DNA of 64,000 bases. Origin: Amphiscolops sp. MND2022. Lineage: Eukaryota. The notes under the pieces are model-generated. The model saw nothing but the letters and a program-made list of their open reading frames with translations, did no database searches and was not told the DNA's origin. Numbering within the stretch: the first letter of the stretch is position 1; each line of letters opens with the position of its first letter. Shown here piece by piece: positions 20,490-55,535 of this stretch. Both the position numbers and the translations under genes were made by a program. The stretch spans positions 24,058,001-24,122,000 of the forward strand of contig OZ076409.1 of assembly GCA_964187785.1 (NCBI GenBank), read 5' to 3'.

Positions 20490-22272
20490 TGTTGGACGCC
20501 CGTACCGCGAACGAAGACGTTTCGGCATTGGTATCCGTTTGTCTATTTCTCTCCTCGTTTTGTTCTAGCAACTTTTCCATCATAGCTTTCAGCATAGACA
20601 TTTCTGATTGTAGGTGGCTAAATCTTTCATCATTTGCCCTCTGTAAATCTATCTCTGGACCTGATGAACTTTGTCTTGATTGGGTTTGATTATCTACATT
20701 TTCGTTGTCATTTTCCATGTTAACGAGTTGTTCCTCGTGAGTAAGTTCTGTTGTTCTGTTGAATCTGCTGAAGTAGTGCCAGTTAACGTTTTCCCGTTTC
20801 TCAAGGTTATTTGGGAATTAGAACTCATACGATGAGAAAGAGATGATTGTTGTGGATAAGAGTTGAATTGTTGTAAGCTCGAGTAAGGTACGTATAAATG
20901 TAAGTAAATACAAGTACTTGTACAATGTAGCGTTAGTAAATCTTGTGTTGTCTCTCCGGTGGCCTTCCACCAGTTCGATGGTAAGACTCAATTCTTACCA
21001 TCGTTTCGTTCTTATTGGTTAGTTAGCAAGGTGCTAATTAGCACTTGGTCACTAGACCGGTTGTATCGCATGTCGCTGGAGGGCTACCAAACTGAAATTG
21101 CGCGCTGAATCTATTTAAACCAATCACTATGAATATTTAATGCATTCAAATTAGTAACTTGTAGTAAGCATCGTCTGAGTCACGGCAAGTGTCGAAATCA
21201 CATCAAAATGGGGTACAATCCAGCTGGGGGTCGGTTAAAATCAACTTTAAACAAGTATGATGTAAAAACGATGAATCAATAGCGCTAATTTAACTGGAGA
21301 TACGGGATTCAGTAGTTTTGTGGTTTTGGCATCGTTTCTACTAGTTGATTCTGTTTATGTGGCTGTGGATGCAGGAATGATGAATGAGCTTTGTTCTAGT
21401 GTTAAAACGATCAACTAGATGTGAAAACGATGAAATGAGTGGTGGGGAGAGCACTGTGCATCGTTCAGGAGTGGTTACATCGCTTTACCATCGTTATTGG
21501 TGAATTTTGATTATAGATGAGAAAACGATGGAAGATTTCCATCGCTTATCCATCGTTCCTGATTTTGGCACTGTTTTCAGGTCTTGGAAGCGTGATTCAG
21601 CTCTAGATGAAAAAACGATGAAAGATTTCCATCGTTTATCCATCGTTAGCTATTTTAGCACCGTTTTCAGGTTTTGGAGGCGTGAGCGATGTACAAATGA
21701 TGAAACATATTGTAACAAGTATTCAATCAAGTAGTTTAATCGCTTTTACATCGTGTTTCAATTCTCTCGTTTTCTGGCGTTCTGGTCACTGTTAGGCAAT
21801 GTAATACGGATGAAACTTGTTAGATTGAGTTAAATTATGAGTTCTAGCACCAATAACATCGTTATTTCATCGTTTTGTGTATTTCAAAGAGAGGAGGCTT
21901 GCCACGCTATTTTCCTCTGAGGCGGGAATTCCCTAGCGAGTGTTCAATCTCGTCTATTTGTCATGGCGGTCCAGTTTGACCGAGAAACTACTTTCTTTCC
22001 TCGTGACAAGCCATTAAATGTAGAATAGCATCAGTTGCTTATTAGCACAATCACTAATTGCGGACAAACAGAACTAGAATGCTCAGTATTAATTAAATAA
22101 ATAGCTCAAATCTCACTGGGGAAAATAGGGGGTTAACTACAAGTAACGTAGGGTTGCTCACAACCATGGATCTTATTATATGACATCATATTGCCCATAC
22201 CTAAGTACATAAGACATAATATTTACATTACATATATTTAGTAGATTATATTTCCATCATGCTGGGATGACA
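20490..22272 (-). repeat. 3' LTR of element A
   Basis: Direct repeat of 34210-35983 with scattered substitutions and a 7-bp duplication near 20750. Confidence 0.95.
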
Positions 22273-23231
22273 CTCCCGGGGGGGATTTGGAAGGCGAGCG
22301 CAGGGGCCAAATGTGCAGAGGATGGTTGTCGCAGCGTGGGCTTTGACATGTTCCTTCGTTGGTCTCAGGGAAATTGCCTTCGTTGGTTCTCAGTTGTTGT
22401 GTGCCTTCGTTGGTTTTGTCTCATTTGTATCTTCTCTGAGAAGGAGACGTCTTTCATCGGATTAATCTCGGCTGTAAACTTGGTTATTTCGGTTAAAGTT
22501 GGACGCGGCAGTTTTAGTTCTTGGCCCATCGATTGTCCGCAGATTGGCTTGTATGGCTGTCAGAGGTGATTATAGAGTCTCGTTTGATATCTGGTTTGAA
22601 TGTCAAGTGGTCAGGTTTTGTAAGTGGAACGACTGGAGAGTATATTGAGCATTTGACTGAAAGGCGGATGAACGTGCGGTTGGAATTTCACAACAAGCGT
22701 GAATTAATATGACGTAATCATATGCGTAGGAGTGTTGAGGGTAAGCCAACTGTGTGCGAGGAGGAAATGTTCAGTTATTTTAATTAGTCATTGAGTAAAG
22801 AAAGTAGCCACAATTTCGAGTGCGTCTTTCCGCTGTGTGTGTAAATCATTCAAATTGCTAACGACGCTGGCAGCTGCATCTAACACTTTGATAAGATTTG
22901 CACGGAAATTTTGAGTAAATTTGTCGTTTTGCAAACAGTAATTTCCTCTGCTAGTTGGTGGAAGGAGACAATAAAGTTGAATCTGTGTTGAAGATTTTTT
23001 GGCAGATTTTCCATCTTTTGATCTCGGGATTGTTAGATGTAGTCGAAACGTTGTTGTTTCTTTTAGCATTTTAGCTATTAATCGGGTCCATATCACGGGT
23101 GATTAGTCCATTTTATGTTGTCGATTATTTTGATTGTCATATCTTCAAACTAATTCCATTGTTATTGTCTGTCTTCATTCGTGTCATGTCTTTTCAGATT
23201 GCAATCGTTTTGTCGTTGTCTCATCGTCACG

Positions 23232-26200
23232 ATGTCGGATAATCGAGAGTTACTTGAGATGAATTTATTGAGTTAGTCATCGAACTTTCATCGTTATTCT
23301 ATATTTTGGGGAAGTGTATTTTGATGTTACGTTTTATTTAGCAGCTGAAGAGGGAATGACGCCTTCTGGGTCTGCAAGTCCAAGAAATTAAGCAGAACTC
23401 ACTAGTGTAGGACCGCTTGCTCCGGCCCAAACGCCGATCGCGCAGCATCCTCTTGTGCCAATGTATCCCCAATGTAAGGTGTTTTCCGTCTGTTGATCAA
23501 TTCCATCGGTTATTCATCGCCAGTCAATCACAATGTTATTTCAGTGTACACACCTTGGCAACAGTCTTTGGGTTCTCTGTCGTTGGGGTGGTACGATGGT
23601 TATCTGCGCAGTACAGTGAGAGAAAACTTGCTAGTGCCAGTAAGTCAACTTTCATGTGTGACGTCGCTTTCAGCTGTCTCTGCTGTTGCGTTCGAGTTGG
23701 TTGTATAGGTTTCATCGGTTGCCCATCGTGAATGTGGCGTCGATGTAGGGACGATGGATTTTGTTATTTTTAGTCCCGCGTGGGGTGCAGTCCGTTGAAA
23801 GACCTGCATTTCGACATTTTGTGTCTGTTGCCTGTGGACCGGAAGCGTCGGAGTCGTCACGTGATGTAGCAACACAGACGCGTCGTGAGTTCGTGGTGGA
23901 GTCGCCTTCCAGGGAGTCAGAGGACATTGAGGCAGTCCCTGAGGATGAGCGGCGGGAGGCAGATGCGATGATCCTTGATGATGAAGACATTGTCGAGTCA
24001 ACTGGAAATGTTGCCGTTGTGGGTGAGGCTGGTACTTCCATCGTCAGTTCATCTGCACAACTTGGTCCAGTTGTTGTCAGGCAGTCAGTTCGGGCAGGTA
24101 AACTAAACAACTTCATCGATCACGTGATTCACTGTCTTGCATGTTATGTGGGCGTGGGTATTTTTATTTTCAAGTGTGATTTGATATCGTTTTCTCGATA
24201 CTTTCTTTTCAGTAGTTTTGATTTTTTTCAGTCGGTAGAAGTTTTCTCTTAGCTAATTTAACTAAAACTTCGTTTTTACATCAGTGGGGTTATTATGGAT
24301 GAATTCCATTCAGTTCTATTTGCAGTTAAGTAGTTTCATAGTTTATCCATCGGATTTTGTTTTAGTTGCTTTAAACAGCATTCGCGCGACTTGGTTTCAA
24401 CACCCGTATGCCGGAATCTCGCTTGGCTTCGCTCGTGAGCATCGCTCATCTGATGCTTATGTGCGATGTCTCTTGTGTCGTCGCGATTTGAAGGTTGGCA
24501 GTCGCGGGATTTCGACCTATCTGGAACATTGTCGCGACGTGATCCATCACAGGTTAGACTGTCTGGTGCGTCTGCGACGTGGAATGTTGCTAAGACGTCC
24601 TACTGGTGCCGTGATGGGCGTGTTAGAAGCGGCGCGAATGGTTGAAGAGTTACGTGGGTTGTCAGTGCCTGACGTGGAAGTGTGTCCTGCCTTGTCAGTG
24701 CCGGATGTGTTCCGGATTGAGTCAGGAGGCGGCAGTATCTGGAGTTCGACCGTGCAGGAAGTGCCTGATACAGAACGCAGTCTGAGGATGTTCCTGTGTG
24801 TCGTCGTGGACGCGCTTTATCGAGGTGGAGACGTGACGAGACTCACCAATTTGTGGGATTCCTTGTCGACGACGGACCTGTCGTACAGAAGTCTTTTCGG
24901 TGGTGGATGCCGGAAGGAAGACGTAGTGGTAATTATATGTTTCATGAATTACATGTATACATGTTATTACATGTTTGGAATTTCCTAATAACCTTCATGC
25001 TGTGTCTATAGACGGGTAAATGATCTAGGTTCTGAGGGGGGTTTTGTGTGCTATTGTCGTGAGGCTGATTGGTGTTTTGGAATATTGTTTTTACCTTTTC
25101 CAGGCGCTTTTGATCTTCGGAGTGTGGCCTTATGTCGTCCGTACACTCGCAGCGTCGCTATGTGGTGAAAATCCTGTTGGACTATATCTGGAGTTGGATA
25201 GGAGTGTCGTTCGTTGCTCTGTCAGTGTGGCTGAGGCAGACGCAGTGCAGGGTGTGGTCCTGTTTGAGGTCGTAGCTACTGGCGACTGGGAGAGGCGAGT
25301 GTCTGAGTGGCTCGCGGACTACTGGAGTTGTGTGGTTGATGACTTTGTCCCCTTGGGGATCAGTTGTGGATGTCTCTCAACTGTTGGAGGGTTGTTAGAA
25401 GGAGACGGCGGCCGACGCGGGTTGCAGCTGAATCCGTTACAATTGCATGCCGTATTGCAGATTATTACAACGGCTGGATTGTCTGTGTTTGTCGGGCAGG
25501 ACGTTCATGTGGTGATGAACTTTCTTCTGGGGAAGCTTCGCGACTGTTTGACTGATCCTGTGTTACGCAGTTGTCCTGCCTTGTTGCATGTTAGTGTGTT
25601 CATATATTTGGTTTCAGTTCGGCAAGAGTTGTGGAGTTAAGAACACGTAGTGGTCATCTTGGAATTTGACGTGAGGTGTGTAAGTAATGTGTTTTATTTC
25701 AGTGTGTCGTAACCGGTGAAATCTCTAATTGGGAGATTGTCTCGGTCCTGGAGGAGTTACATCAGTCGTGGGACAGTATTGTGGCGTTGGTACAGCGTCT
25801 TGATCAGTTAGGAGGAAGTGCAGATCCCAATCGGATGGAATTATTAATCTTGCAGGAATCAGGACTAGCTTTGAGATTGCATGCTATGGGAGCGGTATAC
25901 TCCATTGGTTAGATTTTTGCTTTTGTTACATGTAATTACGTTTATACAGGTTTTGTCGGTTTTCCGTCGCGTTGTATGAGGGTTGGGAGAACTGTCTATA
26001 GTTATCATCGGAAAAATGTCATGTGGCGTGGAACTACTATTTCGAGTCATTTGTTAGGTATGTACTAGGTGAGGACGTTGTTATACAGTGTACATCGGAT
26101 TAGCATCTGGTCATTGGCGTGTTGTGTTCTAATCCTGTTGTTTTAGTACTCAAGAACATGAAGCAGACTTTCGGTGGAAGTATGCATCGCGGATTGTATG

Positions 26201-27097
26201 CCGTCAATGAGTTGCTGAGTACCGTCCGAGAACTTTGCTTGATGGTTGCTCAACCTGCGACAGTTCCGGAATCATTTGAGTTGCACCGCTGGGCCAATTT
26301 TCAAATCGGAGATCTACGGTTAAGTGCAGCGAGAGAGTCACAGTTGTATCGGACTTTCGAAGCTCATCGTGCTCGTTATGCTTGTGGGGGGGGAGTATCG
26401 AGCGGCAGTTACCGTTGTTGAGGAGTTCCTGATCACCGTTGCTATGAACTTGCTACGGATGCCACAGATTTCTGATCAAGTCAATATGGCCCTAGCATGT
26501 TGGTGTCCTGATGTGCTGATGCGCGGAAGTGTCAATGAAATGGAGGAAACAATTGGCTACTTTCTTGAAGCGCCAGAGGGAAATAGTGTTATAGCTGGAG
26601 AAGAAAGAATTGCGATGTCTGAATCTTATGTACGCTTCGTCAGACAATTCCGAGATGACCAACCGAGTGAGTATACATCAGACGTCCATGATAGGTAGCT
26701 GTTGCAGTATGGAACTAACGATGCTAATTTGCGGCGAATGATGCAGTTGTCGTTGTGTTTGAGCGGCAGTGTAATCCAAAATGTTCAGATGGTCAATATT
26801 TGCTTGCCAGTTTTATCTTCAGAGTCACTGAGAAGTATTTTCCTGACAATCCTCAGTTGGTGTGAGGCCCGAAATGTGCGGGGTTTACAGAGTATCCCCG
26901 ATGGCTTAGTGATGGAAAGTAGCGAAGTGATTGGAAGATCGGAAGATTTACGAGACGTCACGCTAGGCAGTTTGTGGGATGAAATCGGCAGAGAGTCTCC
27001 TGATGGTTATCGTGGTGCAGTTTTGGAGCGGTTAGGTTTCACGTCGGATGGAGGAAGGGCTGCGAATCCGGTAATTGGCGGAGAGCATCGATTTTGA
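23232..27097 (+). pseudogene. Spliced antisense accessory gene of element A; Zn-finger, hAT-transposase-like, this copy disrupted
   Basis: GT-AG, phase-compatible exons: 23232-23271, 23345-23473, 23545-23639, ~23709-24097 (uncertain), 24366-24928, 25104-25589, 25703-25907, 26147-27097. Stops at 23389 and 26696, frameshift ~26390. Homologous to 49455-53629(-). Confidence 0.8.
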
Positions 27098-27328
27098 AAA
27101 CTATTTATTTCACACTTGTTTCTTCGTTGTTTTAACTTTGATTGAGTATTTACAGTATCATTAGAAAGTGCAAAGCACTAACATTTGTGTTGGGATTTTG
27201 CTATAATTGTTGTTCTTTTATTTTTGTACTTTGTGCTAAGGTTATTAGAGATTTTCTGAATTGAACATTTAGTTGGAGTTTTCGTGTGCCATAAGGTGGG
27301 AGTTAATTCGTAGGCAGGCTGATTAGGG

Positions 27329-28225
27329 AGATGAGAGGGCGGTGGAAAATTTCCATCGTTACTTCATCTGTAATTGCGTTTGTGTGTAAATTAGTATGAA
27401 TCCTTTGGATGATGAGTAAACGATAAAACATTCTCATCGTTTTCCCATCGCGGGGCTCAGTTGCATGTATTCGAAGTGTAGGTTACGAGACTTAGGTAGT
27501 TTTCATGTTAGGTTGTTATCAGTGATTAAGTGATGGGGAAACTCCATCTGTTATACATCGTGACTGTTGTTGTACTCGCGTGCGTGAAATTACATGTATC
27601 TTTGGATTGCATGAATAGTCTGAGTTTCATGTTAACCTTTCAAAGCGATTTGCACGCGATGAAGTATTTTCATCGTGTAGGCATCGATATAGAGGCTTAA
27701 GTGGGTTTTGGCGTTGAGATATAAAAGGTGAGTGGAAGAGTGGAGTATATCCATCATTCCATCATCGTTGGCTAAGAGTTGGTTCATTTGAGGTAGAAAT
27801 TCTAAAAGCGATGATTAACCGATGAAATTGTAGAGAGAAGGGAGGTGTAGAAGAGATGGAGAAATTCCATCTCTTTACATCGTGCTGTTATAAGTTTGTA
27901 GTCAAATGCGGTGGTTTGTCTAATTTCCATCTAGCAGTTGGTAATTAAATTTTTCATCAACTGAGCGTCGTTAATCAGATGTTGACACGAGGCAAAGCCT
28001 ACGGATAATCAACAGACAGGTCATGGAAACTCAGATTGTTTTTGTGGCATGGTCAGAGAGAAGGTTGGGATGAGAAAACGATGGATGTGAACCATCGTTA
28101 AACTCATTCGAATTTTATGTGTTTCTGGAAGCGATGTGCTGCCGATGGAAATGTTCCATCGGTTTTACATCGTTTCTGGTAATTTCACTTTTTCTTCACG
28201 ATGGGGTGTTATTTAACCATCGTTT
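27329..28225. promoter_or_regulatory. Array of phased palindromic CGATG/CATCG motifs in the element A spacer
   Basis: Example 28132-28172: CGATG-tgctgc-CGATG-gaaatgttc-CATCG-gtttta-CATCG; similar units start at 27329, 27410, 27646 and 28068. Regulatory function is inferred. Confidence 0.55.
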
Positions 28226-28266
28226 TGAAATGTGAGATTGTCGTTTACATGTTTTTCGGTTGTTTT

Positions 28267-31200
28267 CTACTGTAAAGTAGTGTTTGTTTTGCGTAGAGCG
28301 TTTCGAGCAGTTGAGATTTCATGAATTAGGAAGTCTGAGTAGCGTTTCGGCTGAGGGGTTTCGCGTAGACTATATTTGCTTTTATTTGTCCTCGTTGCTA
28401 TCAGATTTGGCGTTTCGTCATCGTTCACCTGTCGGGGTGTCTCGGTGTTGGCAGGTTTTGTTGATGGTTCTGTTTGTTTCGCTGTATCTGGAATGATTTC
28501 CTGTGGACTTATATCATCATTTTCGTTGAATTGCACCTGTGGGGCGTTTCGAGGCAGGTCGTCTATGATTATTTCCGGTTGTGGTGTTAACGACAGTCGG
28601 TTCGGTAGTCGGTTCAGTGGTCTGTCGTGTTTGATTGCCTGTCGATAATCTGGTGATTTGATTCGATTGACTCTTTCAACTGGTGTTTCTTCATCAGTTT
28701 CTGGTTCGTCCGAGTTGGAGTTTATGTTTGTTTGTGTGGGAATGTGGGAATCGAAAATATCAGAATCTTCCGTTCGGTCCGTGTCAGCGTATACTGGTTG
28801 GTTGCTGATTTCTACGTCTTCTACAGGGTATTCCGGTTTGAAGATTTTCAGTCGTATACGATGAACGCATTGTCTTTTGAACGTTCCTACCTTTCGTATG
28901 ATGTAATTACTGTCGGACAGCACTTTCATCACTTTGAACGGACGTTTCCAGTGGAAGGTCTTGAACTCTTCTTTGCAACCCTGAGAGTCGTATTTGGGGT
29001 CAAGTAGGAAAACAAGGTCGTTCACTTTGAGCGGTTGTGCTTTGGGGTTTCTGTCATAATAAGCTTTGTACTTGTGGTATGCAGCTACTATGTTGTCTGT
29101 GTTATTTCGGTAGATTTCGTTCATGCGGTTTAGGATCTGGTTGACGTCTCCAAACTTGGTGTCGACTCGTCTTTCAGGGTTGGAGTATTTTAGGTCCAAA
29201 GCGTTGTATGGAGTGCGTCCGTGAAAGATTTCAGTTGGTGAACATTTCAGAGAAGTGTGGTACGTTGTGTTATGGGCCATGATTGCTATGTCGACATAGC
29301 AATCCCATTGTGGTCTGTATACATTTACATGTCTTTTTAGGATCTTTTTAAGTTTTGCATGACTTCTCTCAACCATGCCTATGGTTTGTGCATGTTTTAC
29401 AGTTGCATGGGAGATTTCAATGCCTATGGCTTTGGTCAGTTGTTGGAATAGTTCGGCGGTGAACACGGATCCTTTGTCAGTCAGGATATGCGTTGGGACG
29501 TACGCGTGTTTGGCGAATCCCGACAGTAAAGCTTTAACTACGGATGGTGTATCGGGTTTTCGTAGCGGTACAGCAAACAAATAACGCGAGAATACGTCGA
29601 TTGCGGTCAGGATATGTGTGAATCCGTTTGATGCAGGCAGTGGTCCGACTATGTCAACTTCCATCAGATCAGAAGGGCCGTTACACGGGTCGTAAATTTT
29701 CTGTAACGGTGGACGGATCTTTGGTTCGTTGGTCGATTTCGATCGCATGCATGTTTCACAGCTTTCGAGTATTTTTTCAGCAAGACTTGGAGAGTAGTAG
29801 CGTTTGCGTAGTTCATGTAACTTCTTTTTAGAGCTGGGGTGTCCATGTACAGGGTTACTGTGTAAGGACCTTATTATTTCTAGCATGACTTGATCAGGTA
29901 CGACGATTTGTTTATGGGACTCAAGGCCAGTATGGTCATAAAAGATACGGTACAGAACTCCGTTTACATTTTCAAGGCGTTTTCGGTTTTTGTGGAGTTT
30001 TTGGAAAAACGTTGACATCAAGTTCACAGAGTGGGTTAGAATTGTTTCGCCAGACAAAATTTTTAACATGAGTTGAATGTCACTATCTGTTTTTTGGGTT
30101 AAAATTAGATCGACTCCCCCTTGGGGCTAACCTTTTTCGTTACCGGGTGTAGTAACGATGTTTTTACGATGAATCTAGTGTACTCTGGTAGGTGAGCGTC
30201 AGTCATTAGCTGGTAGATCTGAGGGGAGCTTGTGTGATCATTCTCAGAGGCCAGTGGTGTGGAGTGTACGTAGTTCATCGTCTTGTCATCGTCACCGTCT
30301 GTCGTCGCTGCGTCAACTGAATTCATCAGTTTGCCATCATCGATCGTCACTGTCTCAGAGTTGATCACTTTCATCGGTTTAGCATCGTGTGACCTCTTCT
30401 GTCTCAGTGTTTCGCTAGGAGGGAAGTAGTCTGGTTCGTCTTCCTCCTGTTTTGGCGTCTTCGAGGCGATTTCAATTTCTATGTGGTGTACTGGAATGGA
30501 ATCAGTTAATTTTAGATGAACACGTTCTTCAGGTCGAATTTCCAACCTGGAAAGGTAATCCGCTGCGGGATTCTCTACACCTGGTACATGTGCTAAAATA
30601 AAATTAAACTGAAGCGTCTGGTCGCAAAAAATCTAGAGTGACGGTGGTATGTGTTTGGCCTGAAAGAAACGGGTGAGTGCTTTATTGTCTGTCATTACAA
30701 TTATAGGTTTCTTTGCACCCCACAAAATGTGACCGAACTCGTCGAACGCGAAGTGCATGGCTAAAAATTCTTTAGCGTACATTGTTAATGACATCTGTCC
30801 ACCCTGAAATTTCTTAGAGCCAAAAGCAACTGGTGCGTACTTCTTCAAGCTACCCGATTGTGTTTCAGAGTAGTCTTCTGTTAAAAGAACATAACCTGCT
30901 GCGTGTTCACTCGCGTCACACATGATTATTAATTGTTTATCCGGAAGGGGAAGTTTCAATGACAGTTTAGTAGCCTTGAGTAAACTTTCGTTAATGTCAA
31001 AAATTACATCTTTGTCAACATACTGGGCACAGCGGTCCGCTTTGACCAAGGGGTCCAAGTACTCGCGGACTACGCTGATGAAGGCTGAAAGAGAACGGTT
31101 AAGACCTTGAGCTACTCTAAGAAAAGCAAAGGTACGGGATCCAAAGTTAAAAGACAAAAGTTGGATTGACTGCTCATCGGCCATAGGAATGCAATGGTAG

Positions 31201-33069
31201 GCCTGGGAACAATCAAGTTTACAGAAATATTTTTCCCGGCCATGTGTTGAGCAGCGTCTGAAACAGTTGCAACTGGGTGGTTATGTTCGCCGTAATCGTT
31301 CTTGATCAGGTGGTTGATTCTCCGCAAGTCAACTAAAATCCTTAGTTTACCATTCGGTTTGCGCTGAGCAAATATCGGTGAAGAGTATTTGCTGTAAGGA
31401 AGGGTAGTTATAATCCCGTACTCCTGCATTAACGCTAATTCTACAAGCAAGTCATCTTTTAGGTTAGTAGGGGTAGGGAGACTTTGGGAGTACACCGGTT
31501 CTTCATGCTGGGGTGTTAATTTTACTTTAAAATCAGTGTTCATGCCGATGTCTAAATGATGTCTAGCAAAAATGGAGTTGTACTTTACCAGCAACTCCTC
31601 TACCTGAGCTTGTTGAGACGGACAGAGAAGTGATTCCTCCCACTTGAAGTTTTGCAGGAACTTGACTCGTTCTTCATGGAAGTGGGTAGGATCGAGCTTC
31701 TCCAGTTCTCTGAGGGCCAGAATCTCATCGAAAATGCGTCGTTCGATCTTGTTGAGTTTGTCTGGCTCACTACACGTCTTTGGTGTCGGGTACCATTTTG
31801 TAGACTTCATCTCGGGGTTCACAAAGAGTTGATTGATCACTGCTGCTGCATCGTCGGGGTGATCGGTGATCAACTTCAGGTGTTCGACTGGCATCGGTGT
31901 GATGTTGGCGGCTTGGTGGGGCGTTGGTATTCTAAAGTTTGCTAGGTTGGTGTTGGCTTCGAGTGTGTACACGTGCTCATTGGGGTTGGTGACCTGAATC
32001 ATCGTTTTGCCATCGTCTAGGTCAACCACTGCTGGAGACACCAAGAGACACGTCTTGCGCATGAATACTGGAGTCCCTTCTACCGTGCCGGTTGTACGTG
32101 ATATGTCCGCGTCACTGTGGACCTCAATCAGTACTTGATGGTGGGGAGGGATGGTGGTTCGGCTGCTGGAATACAAATTAATTAATCCAGTTTTGAACTT
32201 TTCATTCGTCTGTTGTCTCACTTGCATTGACATCATGTGGTTTGGAAAGTGGACTAAATGATTTTTGATGTCAAGGTTGACCGAATATTTTTCAAAGAAC
32301 GACATTCCAATCAGGATTGTTCCCATTGTTGGGAGGACTAAAAAGACTTCTTCAAATACTTTTCTTGCTATAAAAAAGCGTAGAAGGACTTGGTTTCGAA
32401 TGGGGACCAAGCTTCCGTTAGCTATCTGAACTTTGAAGTTAGGGGGTGGTAATTCGTCTAGTACTGCTTCGGGATGAGCAGCAGTGATTTTGCGTAATTC
32501 TGCTTCCGAAAGTGCGCTTTGCACTGCTCCTGTGTCTAAAAGACCTTGGTTTTCGTAGCTGTTAAACTGGAGGGGAACAAACAACATCTTATCCTTTTTA
32601 TTTATATGTAATGTGGGACTAAGTACGTGAAAAGGATTATTGGTTGCATGTTTTTTAGTTTTGGTACTACTACTTTTGTCGTTTCCATGTGTTTTACTAC
32701 TAAGCCGTTTTGTCGATTTGTCATCGGTTGAGAGTCGGTTCGTCGGTTGTAGATGTGAGTACATCTCTTTGGCATCGTGCGCAGGCCTCAATGCGTCGTT
32801 ATGCCAGTTCATCGTTTGCTCATCGAGTGAATTTTCCAATGGAGTGAATTTAATTTGTTGGTAGTCCGCATTGGCTTCATCGGTTGTTCATCGGTTTTCT
32901 GGTTTCTTCGCAGATAGACTTTGTCTGCTTTGCTGGAATCACCAGAGGGCTGCCAAGACCTCTGGTGACGATTGCGTTGAGTTTGTTGAGTCGAGTGAGT
33001 TTTGGAGTCAGAGTGTGGTTGCGCACTTCGATTGTTCGCGGAGTGAAATTGTGGCTTTACTGAAAATCC
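28267..33069 (-). pseudogene. pol: pol of element A (protease, RT with deletion, RNase H, integrase)
   Basis: LLDTGA, YSSPIF..LRILVDLRRIN, MCDASEHA, integrase H..GH..C..C, DIVGPL, TDKGS, VERSH. Frameshifts and stops near 32850, 31225, 30633, 30105; RT deleted after YVD. Confidence 0.93.
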
Positions 33070-34540
33070 TGTTCTCCTTCTGAGGATGGATCTTCATCGT
33101 TGTATTGTATTTCTGTTTGGTTCATGGGGCGCTGTTGTTGTTTTAATTCTCGTCGTCGTTCTTTGTTCTCTTGTTCATCTGTTCGTTGATATGGTAGTTG
33201 TCCGTAGGGTGTGCTCGTTTGCTTTGGGATTCTTTTTCTGCAGTCCCTGGCTGAGTGGCCAGTATACCCGCAAATCTGGCATACCAGTTTTGGGTTGTAT
33301 TTTGGCTTATCTTCATCTTGCCGTTTGGTAGGTTGTATGGCGTCTGGTTTGTTAATGCCATTAGCTTCATCTCTTTGGCGTCCTCTGCATTCTTGTTTCC
33401 TGTGGCCTTGTTTACCACAGTAGAAGCATTTTCCATCGAACCGTTTGATGTCTGGATTGGGCTGAGATTGGTCGGAGCGTGTGAATTCTCGTTTAGGGTT
33501 ATCAGACATTTGGTTAAATGGCTGATATGTCGCTGCAGGTTGTTGTAGGACGTTCTGATATTGGTATTTTCTGAGTAGGTAGTTTTTGATTTCTTCGGGG
33601 CTGCTGTCTTCCTTGTTCGCCATTGTCAGCTCTTGTTGGATTTCGATTGGTAATTTCCCGAAGAGGAACATTTTGATGCATTTGTCAGCCTCGTCGCAGT
33701 ATGCTTGCTTGGCTATTTTCTTGAGGTTTTTTAGAAAATCTCCGAATGTCTGGGTGGTCGGGTCGTATTTGGCTTCATTCCATTTGTAGCGGGCGACTTC
33801 TCTCATATCTTCTTTTGCGAACTCTTTTCTGAATAGTTGCAGGACGTCCTGTAGAGTGGTGGTTGGGTTGATGGTGATGGTTCGCCAAAAGTCAATGGCT
33901 CCATGCGGAGTAAGCTCTGGAAGAAGTGTATTTTATCTTCCTCTGTGATCTTGTTGGCGATGGGTCGGAAATGGTTAAGTAAGAGGTGCTCGAATTCGTT
34001 GTATTTGTCTTTAGAGCCTCGGAAATTGGGAACGTGGGTTTGCAGGAGTTTCGTGTTTGTTTTCTGCAATTTCCTTGGTAGATCTTGGATGGCGTTGAGT
34101 AATGCGGTCTCTGTTGAGTTGCTTGGTGTGTCTTCGTAATCTTCTTCATCTTCTTCGTCATGGAAATAGTTGCGTTGGTTTCTGTGAGTCCTGTTGACTC
34201 CTGTCACCATGTTGGACGCCCGTACCGCGAACGAGGACGTTGCGGCATTGGTATCCGTTTGTCTATTTCTCTCCTCGTTTTGTTCTAGCAACTTTTCCAT
34301 CATAGCTTTCAGCATAGACATTTCTGATTGTAGGTGGCTAAATCTTTCATCATTTGCCCTCTGTAAATCTATCTCTGGACCTGATGAACTTTGTCTTGAT
34401 TGGGTTTGATTATCTACATTTTCGTTGTCATTTTCCATGTTGACGATTTGCTCCTCGTGAGTAAGTTCTGTTGAATCTGCTGAAAGAGTGCCAGTTAACG
34501 TTTTCCCGTTTCTCAAGGTTATTTGGGAATTAGAACTCAT
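33057..34540 (-). pseudogene. gag: gag of element A (one frameshift ~33900)
   Basis: ORFs 33803-34540 and 33057-33806; two CCHC knuckles, CFYCGKQGHRKQEC and CQICGYTGHSARDC. Confidence 0.9.
34197..34209 (-). other. Primer binding site of element A
   Basis: TGGTGACAGGAGT directly after the 5' LTR; identical in B; resembles the complement of a tRNA-Leu 3' end (tRNA identity tentative). Confidence 0.8.
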
Positions 34541-35983
34541 ACGATGAGAAAGAGATGATTGTTGTGGATAAGAGTTGAATTGTTGTAAGTTCGAGTAAGG
34601 TACGTATAAAGGGTAAGTAAATACAAGTACTTTTACAATGTAGCGTTAGTAAATCTTGTGTTGTCTCTCCGGTAGCCTTCCACCAGTTCGATGGTAAGAC
34701 TCAATTCTTACCATCGTTTCGTTCTTATTGGTTAGTTAGCAAGGTGCTAATTAGCACTTGGTCACTAAACCGGTTGTATCGCATGTCGCTGGAGGGCTAC
34801 CAAGCTGAAATTGCGCGCTGAATCTATTTGAACCAATTACTATGAATATTTAATGCATTCAAATTAGTAACTTGTAGTAAGCATCGTCTGAGTCACGGCA
34901 AGTGTCGAAATCACATCAAAATGGGGTACAATCCAGCTGTGGGCGGTTAAATCAACTTTAAACAAGTATGATGTAAAAACGATGAATCAATAGCGCTAAT
35001 TTAACTGGAGATACGGGATTCAGTAGTTTTGTCGTTTTGGCATCGTTTCTACTAGTTGATTCTGTTTATGTGGCTGTGGATGCAGGAATGATGAATGAGC
35101 TTTGTTCTAGTGTTAAAACGATCAACTAGATGTGAAAACGATGAAATGAGTAGTGGGGAGAGCACTGTGCATCGTTCAGGAGTGGTTACATCGCTTTACC
35201 ATCGTTATTGGTGAATTTTGATTATAGATGAGAAAACGATGAAAGATTTCCATCGCTTTTCCATCGTTCCTGATTTTGGCACTGTTTTCAGGTCTTGGAA
35301 GCGTGATTCAGCTCTAGATGAGAAAACGATGAAAGATTTCCATCGTTTATCCATCGTTAGCTATTTTAGCACCGTTTTCAGGTTTTGGAGGCGTGAGCGA
35401 TGTACAAATGATGAAACATATGGTAACAAGTATTCAATCAAGTAGTTTCATCGCTTTTACATCGTGTTTCAATTCTCTCGTTTTCTAGCGTTCTGGTCAC
35501 AGTTAGGCGATGTAATATGGATGAAATTTGTTAGATTGAGTCAAATTATGAGTTCTAGCACCAATAACATCGTTATTTCATCGTTTCGTGTATTTCAAAG
35601 AGAGGAGGCTTGCCACGCTAGTTTCCTCTGAGGCGGGAATTCCCTAGCGAGTGTTCAATCTCGTCTATTTGTCATGGCGGTCCAGTTTGACCGAGAAACT
35701 ACTTTCTTTCCTCGTGACAAGCCATTAAATGTAGAATAGCATCATTTGCTTATTAGCACAATCACTAATTGCGGACAAACGGAACTAGAATGCTCAGTAT
35801 TAATTAAATAAATAGCTCAAATCTCACTGGTGAAAATAGGGGGTTAAGTACAAGTAACGTAGGGTTGCTCACAACCATGGACCTTATTATATGACATCAT
35901 ATTGCCCATATCTAAGTACATAAGACATAATATTTACATTACAGATATTTAGTAGATTATATTTTCATCATGCTGGCATGACA
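34210..35983 (-). repeat. 5' LTR of element A
   Basis: Direct repeat of 20490-22272; minus strand reads TGTCATGCC...GTCCAACA, then the PBS. Confidence 0.95.
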
Positions 35984-40625: not shown

Positions 40626-41707
40626 TGTCATGCCCGCCAAGCATGAAGGAATTAAACGAACTCTAAAACATTAATTTATACATCAAACTCCCTAAAATAC
40701 AGATCATCATGAAAATACATTGCAGTAATTTATTCCCCGAACAATACAGTTGAGAGTATAACCACTGGAACTAACAGTCATCAATACTAAATTCATTCAT
40801 ATTATTGTGCATCGTTTAGAAACCAAGACTGAAACAATCAGTCATCAGCTATCGTGATAGTTTGTGATTTAATCATTCTTCATCCATTTTTTATATTACA
40901 TGTAAAGTATTACCAGAATATTCAATCATTCATAACAACTACATTTCGTTCATTCATATTAGCAATTTGTACAATGCCTTTTAGTAATTATCCTCCAAAC
41001 GATAATTGAATCAGTCACCATGATGATAAGAACACGCGGTAGTAAAGCCTCAGTTTAAGAGGCAATTGAGACAATTGCGTGCTAAAATGACTGGTGCTTG
41101 CGGTCATACTGGATCAAACATGAATAATTAAACGCCGATTATCACCCGTCACGACTGTAGCCACCAGTCGTCAAGTGCAATTAAACAGCAATTAGTAAAT
41201 CGAATGTCATTGGCTAAAAGGAAAGGTGCTAACACACCTTTATAGTTACACAATCGGGTAAAACCGAACTCACTCACAAGTTGTAACCATTGATATAACC
41301 AGTTGCCTACTACCTTGCTTACGAGTTGTCAATCCTTATTTTAACATTAAAACATTTCAATTCAACTTAAACTTCCAGACTTTTCATGGTAATTACCAGA
41401 TCTCAAAGTAGTCAAAATAGACAAGTAGAAACTGAAAATATGGATAGATCAAGCGATAACGAAAGTGAAGCCAGTTTCCCTGAACTTTTATCCAGAGACC
41501 AAATGGTAGACCTTGACTCTGACGACGTTTTAACTAGACGTCAAAACAGTAACAGTTATAACATTGACCAGCGATTTAATGAGATAAATAGACAAATCGG
41601 AGACCTTACCAATATAGTCCTTACACTGACCAATCAGTTTGCCTCCGTTAATGGAGAAGGGAACAGACTGAATCCAGCAACTACAAGTACTGACGGTCGT
41701 TCCGACA
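40626..41707 (+). repeat. 5' LTR of element B
   Basis: TGTCATGCCC...TTCCGACA; about 5 substitutions seen by eye against 54449-55530. Confidence 0.97.
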
Positions 41708-42920
41708 TGGTGACAGGAGTCTCCAACCCACGACCATCAGGATCTCGAACAACACCACCCAACGGGACACCAAGGAGTGACGAAAGTATTCCGCAGATAG
41801 CAGATGTGATGACGGAAATCCACCATCTCCGCAGTACAATGGGGGAAATCTTGACCCATCCAAAAATCCTGCAGACCCAGTACCTCTATTCAAGGGAAAT
41901 CGAGACAAATACAATGAATTCGAGCATTTATTGCTCAACCACTTACGACCACATGCCCACAAACTAACCGAAGAACAAAAACTCAACTACTTTCAGAGTC
42001 TTCTCAGAGATGACGCAATTGAGTTTTGGCAAACCCTAACAATCACGACAGAAACGACACTGAGAGATATACTGACGGCATTCAAAAAAGAATACGCAAA
42101 GGAAGAACTCTCAGAAGTCTCGAAGTTCAAATTCGACCAGCTACGATACGATCCGGCCACTGAGTCATTCAGTACCTTCCTCGCCAATTACAAAAAGATT
42201 GCCAAACAAGCCTACGGTGAAAAGGCACAGGAAATTGTCCAGACCTTCCTATTTGCCAAATTACCGATCCAGCTCCAAAACGAACTAGCAATTGCAGGAA
42301 AACACAATGCCAGCATTGAAGACATCAAAACATTCGTCCAGAGAAGATGTCAATATGCCCAGTTACTTCCAAACCAACAACTCCTCCAACCGTTCAACCA
42401 AGCTATCCAGACACAAGAAGTCCCAAACAAGCCAGTTGTTCAGAAGAGGAACGAAAACGAACGACCAACAATCAAAAAGAAATTCGATGGCAACTGCAGA
42501 TACTGCGCAATTTACGGACACAAATGGGCTGAGTGCCGAAAACGACTGCGTGACGAAGCAGCGGGCAACAACAACTCACAACCTCAGAAAAAGCCCGAAC
42601 AGCAAAATAACAACGCAGAAAGACAACCAAAATACAATGTCAAACTGGTCTGCCAAATTTGCGGATATACAGGTCACTCCGCAAAAGACTGCCGTTACAG
42701 AATACCCCAAACCTCCGCCTACGGAAGCGTGCCATACAATAGGCAAACCACAAATGAAAACAGGGACTTCCAACGCGACTTCCGAAGAGCACACAACTAC
42801 CCTTACCCAGCAAATGAAATGAACGAACTTGCACCAGGGGACCAACAACAGCAAACCAGTGATGACTACTACCAACAGGAATTCACCGAAGGATCATCCA
42901 GCCAGCCAAAAAACTTCTGA
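41386..42920 (+). pseudogene. gag: gag of element B (one frameshift ~41880)
   Basis: ORFs 41386-41967 and 41931-42920; knuckles CRYCAIYGHKWAEC and CQICGYTGHSAKDC; clearly homologous to gag of A. Confidence 0.9.
41708..41720 (+). other. Primer binding site of element B
   Basis: TGGTGACAGGAGT immediately after the LTR-terminal CA. Confidence 0.85.
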
Positions 42921-45900
42921 AGCCACGTCATCCGACTGACTATTACAATAACAAAGTGCGCAACATGAACAACTACTACTACACAAAGAACTACAAAAAC
43001 CGGGCAACTGATCTTCGGCAGGATCAGAAACCTAAGACTACAACTACCCACGAAACAACCAATGACAAAGTGAACCCTCCCTCCGAACCAACGGACGTGA
43101 ACTTACAAACGACAGAAGACAAACAGCACTCTAACTCGACTACAACGACTGACTGTACAAGGAAAACAATGAACCGAAAGAAAGACGTGGCGATCCAGGT
43201 GTTAACAGCAACACTCCAATTAAACAAAAAGGACAAGATGTTGTACGTCCCATTGCAATTCCGAGAATACGAGAACCACGGACTCCTCGACACAGGAGCA
43301 ATAAGAAGTGCAATGTCAGAAGACGAACTCAGACGAATCCTGTCTGCACACCCAGCCGCACTTCTCGAAGAGTACCCAGCACCGGACTTCAAAGTCCAAA
43401 TCGCAAACGGAAGCATCGTCCCGGTCCGGAAACAGGTACTACTTCGCTTCTTCATCGGAGGTAAAGTATTCGAGGAAACCTTCATGATTCTTCCAACCAT
43501 GGGTAACATCTTGATCGGAATGTCATTTTTCAAAAAGTATTCAGTAACACTTGACCTTGCCAACAACGTAGTCAAGTTCCCGGATATTACCCTGCAACTG
43601 AAACCAGAACGAGGACGATACAAAATCCAGATGATCGAATTACGAACGACACAGAAAACAGTCATACAACCGGACCACCAAATCATTGTCCCCGTCCTAG
43701 CAGAAAGGGACCTCGGGACAATCCAGGGCACAGTGGAAACCTTTCCTGCCTTTGAAAGGAAGACACAATTACTGGTGTCCCCCGCCCTAACGCAAATCAC
43801 TGAGAAGAAAAGCCATGTCCAGATCACCAACCTCACTTGCCATACAATTACCCTCAACCCGAACACGACAGTGGCCACCTTCAAAATAATGACTCCCAAT
43901 CAAGCAAAAAACCTACAACCAATGCCAAACGAACAATTGACACTAATAACCAAATACCCGGACGAAGCCACCAACGTACTAAACCAACTGTTCCAGGAAC
44001 CCGGCACTGAAACCAACCGCAGATGGTACCCAATCCCGGAGGCATGTGACGACCCGTCCAAGCTGAACCGCATTGAAAGGCGGATATATGACGAAATCAC
44101 TCAACTCCGTGAAGAAGAGAAACTGGACCCAACAGCAGACGACCAACAACGCAAGGAGTTCCTTGCTAACTTCAAATGGGAGAACTCAATCCTGAATGAA
44201 CACGAACAACAACAAATTGAGAACTTCCTTGTGAAGTACAACAATGTATTCGCCAGACACCGCCTCGACATAGGCATCAATACTGACTTCAAAATCAAAC
44301 TCACTCCGAAGCATGATGAACCAGTCTACGCGCAGAGCTTACCTACACCCACCAACCTCAAAGATGACCTGCTCGTCGAACTAGCGCTGATGCAAGAGTA
44401 CGGGATCATCACGACGTTGCCGTACAGCAAGTATTCCTCACCAATATTTGCCCAGCGCAAACCCAATGGGAAACTTCGCATTCTTGTAGACCTGCGCAGA
44501 ATCAACCACCTCTTGAAAAATGATTACAACCAACATAATCATCAAGTCACCACCATCGCCGACGCCGCCCAGCACAGGCAGGGAAGAAGTACTTCGGCAA
44601 GCTGGACTGCTCGCAGGCGTACCACTGTTTGCAGATGGCGGATGAACAATCCATACAACTCTTGGCATTTAATTTTGGAAGTCGAACCTTTGCTTATCTA
44701 CGACTGGCACAAGGACTCAACCGATCCCTATCAGCATTCAACAGCACGGTGCGAGAATACGTTGATGCACTGGTGAAAGCGGATAAATGTGCCCAATATG
44801 TCGACGACATTGGGATTGCTGCCCACACTGTAGATGAGCTACTGTCAAACATTGAAGCTGTGTTCCAACAAATCCAAAAAGCAGGACTGAAATTGTCGAT
44901 GTCAAAATGTGCGTTTGGCCACCCACAGATCGACTTCCTCGGGAGAAGCATCACATCAAAGGGTGTCGCCCCACTCGAAGACAAGATCGACGACTTCCTC
45001 AAGAAGATCAAATTGTCCACATCAATCAAATCCCTCCAAAGGTACATCGGGTTTGTCCAGTTCTACAGGCAGTACATACCACGCCTAGCAGAAAAACTCA
45101 CCCCACTGTACAAACTACTCCAAAAAGACGTCAAATTCCAGTTGACCCAGCAGCACAAGGACATCATCTTCGAGATTAATGAAAATCTTGCCAAAGCTGC
45201 GAAACTTTCGCTGCGTCTGCCGTTACCTGATAAACAGCTTGTTATAATGTGCGACGCCAGCGAGCATGCGGCAGGATATGTCCTCCTGATAGAAGACTAT
45301 ACCGAAACAAACGATGGACCACTGAAAACGTACGCCCCAGTATCATTTGGATCCCAACGATTCACGGAGGGCCAAATGTCCCTAACAATGTACGCAAAGG
45401 AATTCCTGGCGATGCATTTCGCATTCGATGAATTCGCACACATACTCTGGGGTGTCAAGAAACCAACAATAGTAATGACGGACAATAAAGCACTGACCCG
45501 ATTTTTTCAGTCTAAACGGATTCCCCCGAAGCTATGGAATTACTGCGATCAGACGCTCCAATTCGAATTCGTACTTGCCCACGTTCCTGGAACTGAGAAC
45601 CCTGCTGCAGACTACCTGTCTCGTCTTGACATACGACCAGAGGAAAGAATACACCTCAAACTCAACGACGAGATACCAGTCTTCCACGTCGAGATCGACC
45701 TGGCATCGAGAACACCCAAGCAGGACGAAGAAGAAGAAGAATACTTACCTGATGACCAACACACTACCACCACCAAACAAAATGAAGCCATCAACGCCAT
45801 CCTGGACCAGGTCCCCATGTGCAGCAACGAATCGAGTGGACAGTTTCTCGAGAGGATAGAAACCATCCGTCATCAAATCACACCCATCATCACAGGGCAA

Positions 45901-47712
45901 CATGACGAGATGACGTTCACCAGATTCAGACGAAAGCTTCATGACAACGTGGTAAACCAGGTATGCCCCAATGGGGAGTTTCAAATCATCCAGGATCAAG
46001 TCGTACACCTTGACATCCAACGCATGATTAGAATTTTGAACCAAAAGGAAACCCTTCCTAATCATGTGAACTTTGAAAGTCTGTTTTTCCAAAAACTAGT
46101 TAAAAACAAGAAAAGACTTGAAGTAGTGAACAACGTTTTGTACAGGAATTTTTTTGATGGTACAGGTAAAATCAAGTGTAAACAAGTTGTCACTCCCCCT
46201 GAAACCATCCGGAAAATCATTCAATCCCTGCACGATGACCCTCTGCAAGGTCACCATGGCTGTAACAAAATGCTCCATGAACTGCGTAAAAGGTACTACT
46301 CACCAAACCTCTCTGAACTGGTACTGCAATACGTCTCGAACTGCCAGGACTGCATCCGCGCAAAACCAATCCGAAAAGCTGCAATCACACCACCACTTCA
46401 ACAATTATACGACCCCTGCAACGGACCAGAAGACATACTAGAAATCGATTTAGTCGGTGAACTCCCACCTTCCAACGGATTCACACACATCCTCACTGCA
46501 TGCGACTACTTTTCTAGGTACCTCTTCGCAATACCAATCCGTAAACCGGACACAAAGTCGGTCGTAGAAGCACTCATGCAAATCTTCACGCAGCACTCGT
46601 ATGTACCCAAAACAATCTTAACTGACAAGGGAACGACATTCACATCTCAACTACTCAACGCCCTGATGGAGTCTGCCGGTATAAAAATCGAACACGCTTC
46701 TGTAAAGCACGCACAAACGATCGGGATGGTTGAACGTTCACATCAAAAACTGAAACAAATTCTCAAAATCAACATCTCAGCTGATTCACCACAATGGCAC
46801 AAATACGTCAACATGGCCGTAATGGCCCATAACACAACCTACCACCAGGCTATCCGATGCACACCCACTGAAGTTTTCCACGGACGTGTTCCGTTCAATG
46901 CCCTTGACGTCAAATTTGGCCATCCCTTAACCGAACAACGTAACACCACTGACGTCACTGGAATACTAGATAACATGAACAAAAAATTCCAACAAACACA
47001 TGACAACATAATCGAAGCCTTTCACAAATACAAGAATTACTACGACCGAAAAGCGCAAGCTTCACCTCTGAAAGTAAATGATTTCACCTTTCTGCTAAAC
47101 AAAAGACTGTCTCAGCAATCTGAAAAAATTCCTTTCAAGGAATTCAAGTGGGAAGGCCCATACAAAGTGGTCAAAGTCTTGTCAAATTCAAATTACTTCA
47201 TACGTAAGATTGGCACTCTTCGCACCCAATGCGTTCACAGAATGAGGCTTCGCCCATTCACGCCAAACGCACCAATCGAAGACATTCAAGACAATGCATC
47301 ACAATATTTCGAAGATCCTGACGCCCTCAACGAGCAGGAGTTATTTGACAATAACCTACCTGATCATGTCCATGAATAGCCACAACAAGTAATACCTGAA
47401 CAATCAAACTTCGAAGAGTTACACGCAGACCATGGAATGATCTACTACGAACGGCAAAACATAGAACCTGATCAAAACATCTCCATACCTGAAAGCCAGG
47501 CTGAAACACAAGAACCACAACCGGATAATGCTAGCATGAACAATTCTGAACACCAAACAAATGATCGCCCTCCAGCGCCATCACGACACACCATGTCTCG
47601 ATACGGGCTCAGACACAACCCAAAACCTACCACGTACCCTGATTTCTTAATGCACGAATTACATGGTACGCCTTCACTGCAACAGTTACTTCTGAAAAAC
47701 AGAAACCTGTAA
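42908..47712 (+). pseudogene. pol: pol of element B (PR-RT-RH-IN)
   Basis: LLDTGA, YVDD, MCDASEHA, integrase HHCC and D-D-E motifs. Frameshift ~44575; stop at 47377 followed by an in-frame continuation to 47712 that resembles the C-terminus of A. Confidence 0.95.
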
Positions 47713-54431: not shown

Positions 54432-54448
54432 AAAAAGGGGGGGGGGAA
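54432..54448 (+). other. Polypurine tract of element B
   Basis: A5-G10-AA directly before the TG of the 3' LTR. Confidence 0.9.
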
Positions 54449-55530: not shown

Positions 55531-55535
55531 CGACC

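Follow-up and report, generated by a model that had tools for sequence, protein, structure and literature searches.

A 64,000-nt stretch of contig OZ076409.1 (positions 24,058,001 to 24,122,000 of the forward strand, hereafter the window) contains two complete and related Ty3/gypsy retrotransposons, A and B, each of which carries a further gene between pol and the 3' long terminal repeat (LTR), on the strand opposite gag-pol. The positions of both elements, of this antisense gene and of the features around it are collected in Table 1. From self-comparison, the LTRs of A lie at 20490-22272 (3') and 34210-35983 (5') and are 97.1% identical over 1784 nt, and those of B lie at 40626-41707 and 54449-55530 with 99.5% identity over 1082 nt. 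In both elements the LTRs have TG..CA ends, 5-bp target duplications are present (TTGGT for A, CGACC for B), and an identical 14-mer resembling a primer-binding site, TGGTGACAGGAGTC, adjoins the 5' LTR. The Pfam domains follow the same order along A and B, namely gag zf-CCHC, gag-asp_proteas, RVT_1, gypsy-type RT_RNaseH, Integrase_H2C2 and rve. By their LTRs and target duplications as well as by their domain order, A and B are Ty3/gypsy LTR retrotransposons.

The antisense gene is homologous in A and B and consists of at least five exons. Translated comparison (tblastn) aligned the two copies colinearly on opposite strands, with E 2.3e-6 for the zinc-finger exon and E 7.6e-7 for exon 2, together with a weak third piece (E 0.51); judged from these alignments, the protein likeness is far beyond chance. 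Four GT-AG introns of 268, 175, 113 and 239 nt are predicted in A. The first of them (24098-24365, phase 1) precedes the finger exon, with the donor GGGCAG/GTAAAC after 24097 and the acceptor TTGTTTTAG/TT before 24366. Between exons 1 and 2 the donor is GTG/GTAATT (24928/24929) and the acceptor TTTTCCAG/G (at 25104), between exons 2 and 3 they are CAT/GTTAGT (25589/25590) and TTATTTCAG/T (at 25703), and between exon 3 and the last exon TTG/GTTAGA (25907/25908) and TTGTTTTAG/T (at 26147); pyrimidine tracts accompany the splice sites of these three junctions. A first-pass annotation of the window had named the same three junctions (24928/25104, 25589/25703 and 25907/26147), all of which have canonical GT-AG sites in A, and had suspected a fourth intron before the zinc finger, which proved to be real, with its sites retained in the assessable copies. 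The exon chain that it had read as common to A and B was recovered in the colinear matches, and the intron positions and phases that it had taken to be shared were found again as homologous GT-AG sites (phases 1, 0, 0 and 1) in the three lineages described below.

Neither window copy is intact. In copy A the damage lies in the last exon, where the frame shifts at about 26300-26420 and an in-frame stop follows at 26696-26698. Set against L031, an open copy of its own lineage, copy B has two in-frame stops in the finger exon, where a codon of the CxxC motif is also lost. Its reading frame shifts where exon 2 ends, and a further stop interrupts the last exon close to its beginning. The two finger-exon stops replace arginine codons of L031 (P-R-N and F-R-I), and the decay of this gene is found in an element with LTRs that are still 99.5% identical.

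To follow the gene beyond the window, its exons were searched for in the window's own genome (1.07 Gb). Exon 2 returned 1278 candidates and 151 scored matches with 28-100% protein identity; of the 150 matches listed, 132 had no stop, and the matches span residues 1 to 161 or 162, which indicates that the exon ends are conserved. With exon 1 there were 2288 candidates (129 of the 150 matches listed without a stop), and with the B-type last exon 933 (87 of the 104 listed without a stop); the open frames among the B-type matches listed were mostly 439-461 aa long, compared with 397 aa in the window copy. Across the range of identities, 26 loci of 10 kb were taken, giving 28 copies together with A and B. 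They are divided into A-type copies, with an exon 2 that is 50-100% identical to that of A, D-type copies (L024-L028, 28-35%) and B-type copies (L031-L036).

In each of the 26 loci a gypsy integrase or pol match lies 1.4-4 kb downstream of the gene and is convergent with it, and the gene is convergent to integrase in A and B as well; three loci in tandem arrays retain only a C-terminal integrase fragment, and two (L019 and L020, of which the match rows were seen in part) are overlapping windows on one array in which pol is visible. The integrases of the three lineages are 52-70% identical. Conversely, 60 of 71 integrase matches had a scored exon-2 match in convergent orientation within 9 kb, in a cross-check that used 112 of the 150 listed exon-2 places and left out the class with about 34% identity. 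The region is, as the first-pass annotation had anticipated, not absent from most members of the family, and by its location between pol and the 3' LTR in most copies the gene is an antisense additional open reading frame (ORF) of the type designated aORF-3R. The tandem arrays (L016/L017 at G000:C6:65.03 Mb, L029 at C6:15.29 Mb, and one at C13:45.78 Mb) contain the cassette with the C-terminal integrase fragment, or partial gene copies. Their periods are about 6.4 kb (three exon-2 matches) and about 3 kb, and B-type last exons recur 1.6-3.9 kb apart; in the array copies L016 and L017 the exon-2 donor is mutated to TT.

The GT-AG sites are canonical and at homologous positions in representatives of all three types, and the numbers of copies in which each site is retained are included in Table 1. 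Database relatives of exon 1 and of the last exon are all exon-sized, and the open frames of the 150 listed exon-2 matches do not exceed 284 aa, so that no intron-less version of the gene was seen. Intact reading frames, which had been expected of a consensus, are present in natural copies of the family: in 6 of the 21 A/D-type copies (L012, L014, L015, L025, L026 and L027) one open frame of 315-358 aa covers the whole last exon, and all four examined exons are open in the B-type copy L031. The conserved frame starts at about 23758, at ..LL.VPRE.., in all A-type copies, downstream of the start codon at 23232 that had been proposed; in most of them it starts right after a stop or a possible acceptor, and an ATG is found there in one subfamily only. 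Measured from where conservation begins in exon 0 through to the stop codon, an open A-type gene has about 2508 nt (836 aa), and the protein is predicted to comprise about 840 aa or more.

Table 1. Features of the two retrotransposons and of the antisense gene (positions in the window; exons, arrays and cassette refer to A unless stated otherwise; a slash marks the exon boundary).
Feature	Position	Strand	Remarks
Element A	20490..35983	-	Complete Ty3/gypsy LTR retrotransposon, gag-pol on minus strand
3' LTR of A	20490..22272	-	11 CATCG-N6-CATCG sites and a 90-bp repeat (x1.9)
Cassette	22890..27825	+	Deep-divergence island with antisense gene and flanks; sharp edges near 22890 and 27825 (A against L012)
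Upstream phased CATCG array	23278..24352	.	15 pentamers in 1160 nt, 1.7 expected
Exon 0	23758..24097	+	First conserved exon; acidic, fast-evolving
Exon-0 donor G/GT			14/14 assessable copies
Exon-1 acceptor AG			18/18 assessable A/D-type copies
Exon 1	24366..24928	+	BED-like zinc finger (C..C 24467-24478, H..HH downstream) and helical domain; most conserved exon
Exon-1 donor GT			25/25 assessable copies
Exon-2 acceptor AG			24/26
Exon 2	25104..25589	+	162 aa; flanking AG and GT retained
Exon-2 donor GT			25/27; both exceptions are tandem-array copies
Exon-3 acceptor AG			28/28
Exon 3	25703..25907	+	68 aa and 1 nt, phase 1
Exon-3 donor GT			28/28
Last-exon acceptor AG			26/28; the two exceptions may be misregistered
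Last exon	26147..27097	+	Stop codon 27095-27097
Downstream phased CATCG array	27354..28172	.	Between stop of antisense gene and stop of pol; 19 pentamers in 1172 nt, 1.3 expected
Integrase ORF of A	28267..30126	-	Convergent with antisense gene; Pfam rve, Integrase_H2C2, Integrase_p58_C
Element B	40626..55530	+	Complete related Ty3/gypsy element, gag-pol on plus strand
Antisense gene of B, decayed	49455..52398	-	Finger exon about 52398-51820, exon 2 51701 to about 51213, exon 3 51093-50883, last exon 50734-49455

The ratio of non-synonymous to synonymous divergence (dN/dS), which the first-pass annotation had expected to be below 1, was 0.02-0.36 overall, and in every pair tested the lowest value of the six frames was that of the proposed frame. 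Between cassette lineages it was 0.03-0.07 for exon 1, 0.10-0.36 for exon 2 and 0.05-0.17 for the last exon (these ranges cover the pairs with an estimable dS). The identities at the first, second and third codon positions of exon 2 were 0.88/0.93/0.62 for A and L012, 0.60/0.84/0.39 for L014 and L022, and 0.91/0.98/0.48 for L033 and L034, a pattern that indicates long purifying selection, and third codon positions are saturated. Very close copies exhibited higher ratios (up to 1.5, exon 1 of L012 and L013), as expected for decay after insertion. Judged from these substitution patterns, the selection on the antisense gene is purifying, long and strong.

The alternative that the gene is a passenger, a host gene captured in antisense at the DNA level and hitch-hiking without use to the element, would account for the retention of introns as in a host gene, and both window copies are indeed decayed. 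In contrast to what a useless passenger would exhibit, however, the gene has been under purifying selection across lineages that are saturated at silent sites while it propagated as part of the elements, it is kept in three lineages with integrases as divergent as those given above, and no full-length or named host homologue was found by word-based and exhaustive searches. We therefore regard this alternative as extremely improbable. The proposal that this is an old, selected accessory gene of the gypsy clade rather than a recent nested insertion is supported by its location at the same place in three lineages and by the low dN/dS. Altogether, we assign a probability of roughly 80% to the reading that it is a genuine accessory gene of an abundant Ty3/gypsy clade, and neither a nested insertion nor a chance chain of ORFs.

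Antisense introns are not splice substrates in the genomic RNA and are copied by the reverse transcriptase. Since the genomic RNA is the opposite strand, the gene could be expressed only from integrated DNA. Transcription would start from an antisense promoter of the integrated copy, either its own or one in the 3' LTR, and splicing would follow.

The silent divergence of the antisense gene does not track that of pol. Between A and L012 the sliding identity is 92-99% in the LTR, the adjoining 600 nt and pol, and 55-83% over approximately 22890-27825, a region that we refer to as the cassette. L014 and L022 are 95-100% identical outside the cassette and 54-84% inside, and for L033 and L034 the identity falls, over a graded edge, from 98-100% in pol to 58-82% in the cassette; the island pattern is also present in L031, L032 and L033, and its edges differ between element pairs. 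The synonymous divergence (dS) of A and L012 is 0.063 in the integrase, 1.63 in exon 1 and 0.87 in exon 2, and that of L014 and L022 is 0.146 in the integrase and 2.8 in exon 1. For L014 and L015 the relation is reversed (integrase dS 0.152, exon 1 dS 0.022), and in the B lineage the exons of L031 and L032 have a dS of 1.3-1.6 compared with 0.23 for pol.

A locally raised mutation rate, caused for example by editing or hypermutation, would be in line with the fact that the cassette is more diverged than pol in most between-subfamily comparisons. On the other hand, at a similar integrase dS the ratio of cassette to integrase dS extends from about 0.15 (L014/L015) to about 20 (A/L012 and L014/L022), the edges are sharp between A and L012, and the non-coding LTR is as little diverged as pol, for which reasons we consider a mutational origin of the excess divergence very unlikely. 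Ratios from 0.15 to 20 do not fit a uniform change of rate, and they point to anciently diverged cassettes that were recombined onto young backbones. The comparisons have shown, as far as sequence can tell, that cassettes were swapped between near-identical backbones by recombination, presumably by template switching between co-packaged RNAs.

The encoded protein is predicted to begin with an acidic and fast-evolving part, followed by a BED-like zinc finger and a helical domain; for about 550 further residues no relative is recognisable. In exon 1 the residues C34, C37, H54, C55, H60, H61 and C65 are invariant in 14 copies. An AlphaFold model of this exon, calculated from 112 sequences with a predicted local distance difference test (pLDDT) score of 88, consists of a beta-hairpin and a helix followed by further helices, with strands at 31-34 and 39-42 and a helix at 48-55 (pLDDT about 90). 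In the model, the putative finger has the BED ligand pattern, i.e. C-x2-C ... H-x(3-5)-H/C on a beta-hairpin and a helix. The fingers of A-type and D-type copies are alike, and the B-type finger differs. A model of exon 2 (11 sequences) reached a pLDDT of 50, too low for a fold search.

Pfam yielded a match to zf-BED (PF02892) in 4 of the 14 exon-1 copies, with a best E of 0.011, which is below threshold, and none in the window copy. Apart from this, no Pfam family was found for any exon at E up to 0.01, and with the limit raised to E 5 neither exon 1 nor the last exon matched PF04195, the hAT dimerisation domain or a DDE domain. A Foldseek search with the exon-1 model gave no match at E <=0.001; among its weak, non-significant rows Hermes transposase was on top (E 1.2), and the BED domain of Hermes, ZBED1, ZBED2 and ZBED3 were also present. 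With VIA-align only the helical hairpin of the exon-1 model was matched (Z <=5.8). PDB sequence profiles gave nothing for exon 1 at E up to 1 and rows at chance level only for exon 2 and the last exon. Searches with profiles built from exon 1 and from the last exon retrieved 129 and 57 proteins, all of them unnamed exon-sized ORFs from ENA assemblies, a word-based search for longer proteins with exon 1 retrieved none, and an exhaustive HMMER search with the exon-1 profile gave 96 representatives of 50-282 aa, with no full-length or named homologue. Two long HMMER rows, a fungal multi-finger hypothetical protein and a WWE-domain protein, were dismissed as unrelated. Leads from the ESM Atlas were likewise set aside as noise: the last exon lay near clusters of viral RNA-dependent RNA polymerases (0.88-0.89), and exon 2 near fragments of AAA_11 or superfamily 1 helicases (0.88-0.91) with few shared features, and the exons show no Walker or helicase motifs.

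Both the LTRs and the flanks of the gene in A are filled with a phased motif. CATCG-N6-CATCG (at most one mismatch) occurs 56 times in the window, compared with 2.26 expected and a largest value of 8 in shuffled sequence, and 50 of the sites are inside A: 11 in each LTR, 6 upstream and in the 5' part of the gene, 12 downstream, and the others in the gene and in pol. Same-strand pairs of CATCG exactly 11 nt apart number 24, with almost no other spacing, and partners on the opposite strand are located at +14 and +25. The 90-bp repeat of the LTR holds one palindromic four-site unit, and on the sense strand of the element the motif reads CGATG. In four cassette lineages the pentamer is enriched 10-20 fold in the 1.2 kb upstream and in the downstream intergenic region, and about twofold in the gene body; the downstream array comprises 24-35 pentamers in the other cassette lineages, and the motif-rich flanks are only 55-70% identical between cassette lineages. 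The number of exact sites per locus is 10-23 in A-type, 2-3 in D-type and 0 in B-type copies (six loci). D-type copies have pairs of TCATC with the same 11-nt spacing.

A finger of this kind together with arrays of short repeats raises the question of a transposon origin. The cassette could go back to a hAT-like DNA transposon that had subterminal repeats, encoded a BED-finger transposase and inserted into an ancestor of these gypsy elements, with which it would have travelled ever since; its product could still be a transposase or have been domesticated. The BED-like finger lies near the N-terminus, the size of the protein is typical of hAT transposases, and short-motif arrays in both orientations flank the gene in the manner of subterminal repeats. 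Moreover, an inverted pair of 23 nt (91% identical, 23498-23520 and 27808-27830) brackets the gene, with its right arm at the mosaic edge, and the top Foldseek row, albeit non-significant, is a hAT transposase of this kind, Hermes. However, within the E limits given above, Pfam found neither the hAT dimerisation domain nor a DDE domain in the exons of the three lineages, and the F-x-C-x-V-V-D-A-L-Y stretch of exon 1, considered as a first catalytic hAT-like strand, was rejected, being helical in a confident model. The sole inverted pair consists of the dispersed CATCG motif, which is present about 50 times in the element, including LTRs and pol, and was rejected as a terminal inverted repeat. 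Neither a terminal inverted repeat nor a target duplication specific to the cassette was found, as the first-pass annotation had already noticed. B-type elements have the gene without motif arrays, and in none of the 26 loci was the cassette found outside a gypsy element. A hAT-like ancestry is on these grounds improbable.

As to the function of the accessory gene, we tentatively propose, at less than even odds, that its product is a sequence-specific DNA-binding regulator of the element, reading the CATCG-N6-CATCG arrays in the LTRs and gene flanks. In A-type elements the finger would recognise the 11-bp-phased arrays found throughout the LTRs and on either side of the gene, by analogy with a retroviral transactivator or with a BED-finger insulator protein and its clusters of sites.

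Several observations weigh against the view of a selected accessory gene with such a product. Both window copies are broken and hence uninformative on present activity. No scored exon-2 neighbour was found for 11 of the 71 integrase matches, and these 11 loci are also absent from the best 150 of the 2288 exon-1 candidates. B-type elements lack phased sites and yet retain the gene, some sites are located within pol, and the link between motif and protein is a correlation over three lineages only. The assignment of the finger to BED is weak, with a sub-threshold Pfam match in 4 of 14 copies, no PDB sequence match and no significant fold match, and as the rest of the protein matches nothing, its function is deduced from one small domain and a motif.

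A more speculative extension, which we consider unlikely, is that the cassette constitutes the specificity module of a recombining retrotransposon population, in which ancient alleles are held side by side by selection. The DNA-binding factor would act on phased arrays in its own LTRs and around its own gene, selection might consist of frequency-dependent escape from host silencing or of interference between elements, and backbones of LTRs and gag-pol would sweep across the cassette alleles by template switching. If this were true, the cassette would correspond, among retrotransposons, to the exchangeable immunity regions of temperate phages or to retroviral env subgroups, and gypsy elements of fungi, plants and animals would have independently recruited antisense, intron-protected regulators that bind DNA.

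The accessory genes that LTR retrotransposons carry seldom receive an annotation, and hardly any of them is understood. The one described here is large, multi-exonic and clearly selected, and it is present in roughly a thousand or more copies in what is apparently an animal genome. Antisense orientation is the only way for a retroelement to keep introns, which makes the gene a natural equivalent of the laboratory reporter cassettes that rely on an antisense intron. A zinc-finger protein together with strictly phased arrays provides a model of self-regulation that can be tested directly, and the combination of near-identical backbones and ancient cassettes makes selection within transposon populations accessible to testing. 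As the same contrast shows, it is the accessory gene rather than pol that sets the subfamilies of this clade apart, which a classification based on reverse transcriptase would miss. Gene predictors are likely to call the exons host genes, and recognition of the family cleans the annotation.

Further features of the two elements and of their surroundings were recorded. Beside the 3' LTR of A (22273-22300, plus strand) the sense strand is C-rich and then reads GGGAG, with the G-run on the other strand, unlike the polypurine tract of B, which is a classic A5G10. The most 5' open frame of A (33803-34645, minus strand; 280 aa, no Pfam match) extends 436 nt into the 5' LTR, and the same frame is open in the 3' LTR as well (20482-20817). 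The host site of B is a tandem repeat of about 1155 bp, in which 55530-56482 recurs at 56685-57637 (97%) and 40413-40625 matches 56478-56690 (94%). Elsewhere in the window, a 417-aa frame running off the window start (2-1255, plus strand) matches CCDC39 (Pfam E 6.7e-50, profile positions 543-893) and presumably belongs to a cilia gene of the host, as one of its large exons. A frame at 9113-9652 (minus strand) may be an exon of a homeobox gene, its first 17 residues aligning with the final part of the homeodomain profile (E 9e-5). Degenerate integrase-like frames at 16795-17903 (plus strand; rve E 0.0023) probably represent an old retroelement, and a remnant of a Tc1/mariner-type transposase (DDE_3 E 6e-13, HTH_Tnp_Tc3_2) is located at 62145-62807 (minus strand). 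The region 12000-18000 has a strongly A-rich strand with an AT skew of up to 0.32, and 6575-6739 and 16064-16226 form a 165-nt inverted pair (88% identical) outside A and B.

Antisense additional ORFs between pol and the 3' LTR (aORF-3R) are described, in the accessible text of PMC7264820 and PMC11963269, for maize Grande, rice RIRE2, Silene Retand, Phaseolus PvRetro13 and fungal Boty. According to the same portions of these sources, the plant genes resemble the one studied here in place and orientation, in their presence in most copies of a family, in a long region between pol and the 3' LTR, and in a suspected nuclear or DNA-binding regulatory role, and Retand also has repeat arrays there. 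The plant aORFs for the most part carry a TRP28 domain (PF04195), as far as that text extends, whereas the present gene has no PF04195 match. The word 'intron' is absent from the main text of PMC7264820 and PMC11963269, in contrast to the four conserved introns found here. Unlike the plant aORFs, the present gene has a BED-like finger and apparently an animal host.

Outside plants, an additional antisense gene, brtn, is reportedly carried by Boty-like Ty3/gypsy elements of Botrytis and Sclerotinia (mentioned in PMC8365987 and PMC7264820, and said to be described by Zhao et al. 2011, Virology 417:248). It resembles the present gene in being an additional antisense gene of a gypsy element and differs in its fungal host.

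The transcript of HBZ, the antisense gene of human T-cell leukaemia virus type 1 (HTLV-1), is spliced, and its intron, like those of the present gene, is unspliceable in the genomic RNA. HBZ and its HTLV-2 counterpart APH-2 are deltaretroviral antisense genes which, in the accessible portions of PMC10186651 and PMC11963269, are expressed from an integrated provirus and act as nuclear regulators, two properties that the present gene would share. HBZ is a small bZIP protein encoded with one intron and a promoter in the 3' LTR, whereas the gene described here would encode about 840 aa and has four predicted introns.

With regard to the finger, the BED finger of BEAF-32B binds clusters of CGATA (PMC5021357, accessible text), so that a single BED-type finger and a clustered 5-nt motif containing CG would be common to both systems. 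The BED domain of Hermes transposase on subterminal repeats (PDB titles 8eb5 and 8edg) is alike in combining a BED finger with clustered sites. No strict phasing at 11 nt, such as that of the present motif, is mentioned for BEAF in the accessible text of PMC5021357, and the present finger is sub-threshold in Pfam. For animal gypsy elements, no description of an antisense accessory gene was found in the open literature (including the accessible text of PMC8220671, PMC5408684 and PMC13524379; subscription journals and Repbase notes were outside reach). Antisense accessory genes as such are known from plants and fungi; what is new here is an antisense accessory gene of a gypsy element that is multi-exonic, BED-like and cassette-exchanged, and that is accompanied by phased arrays of sites.

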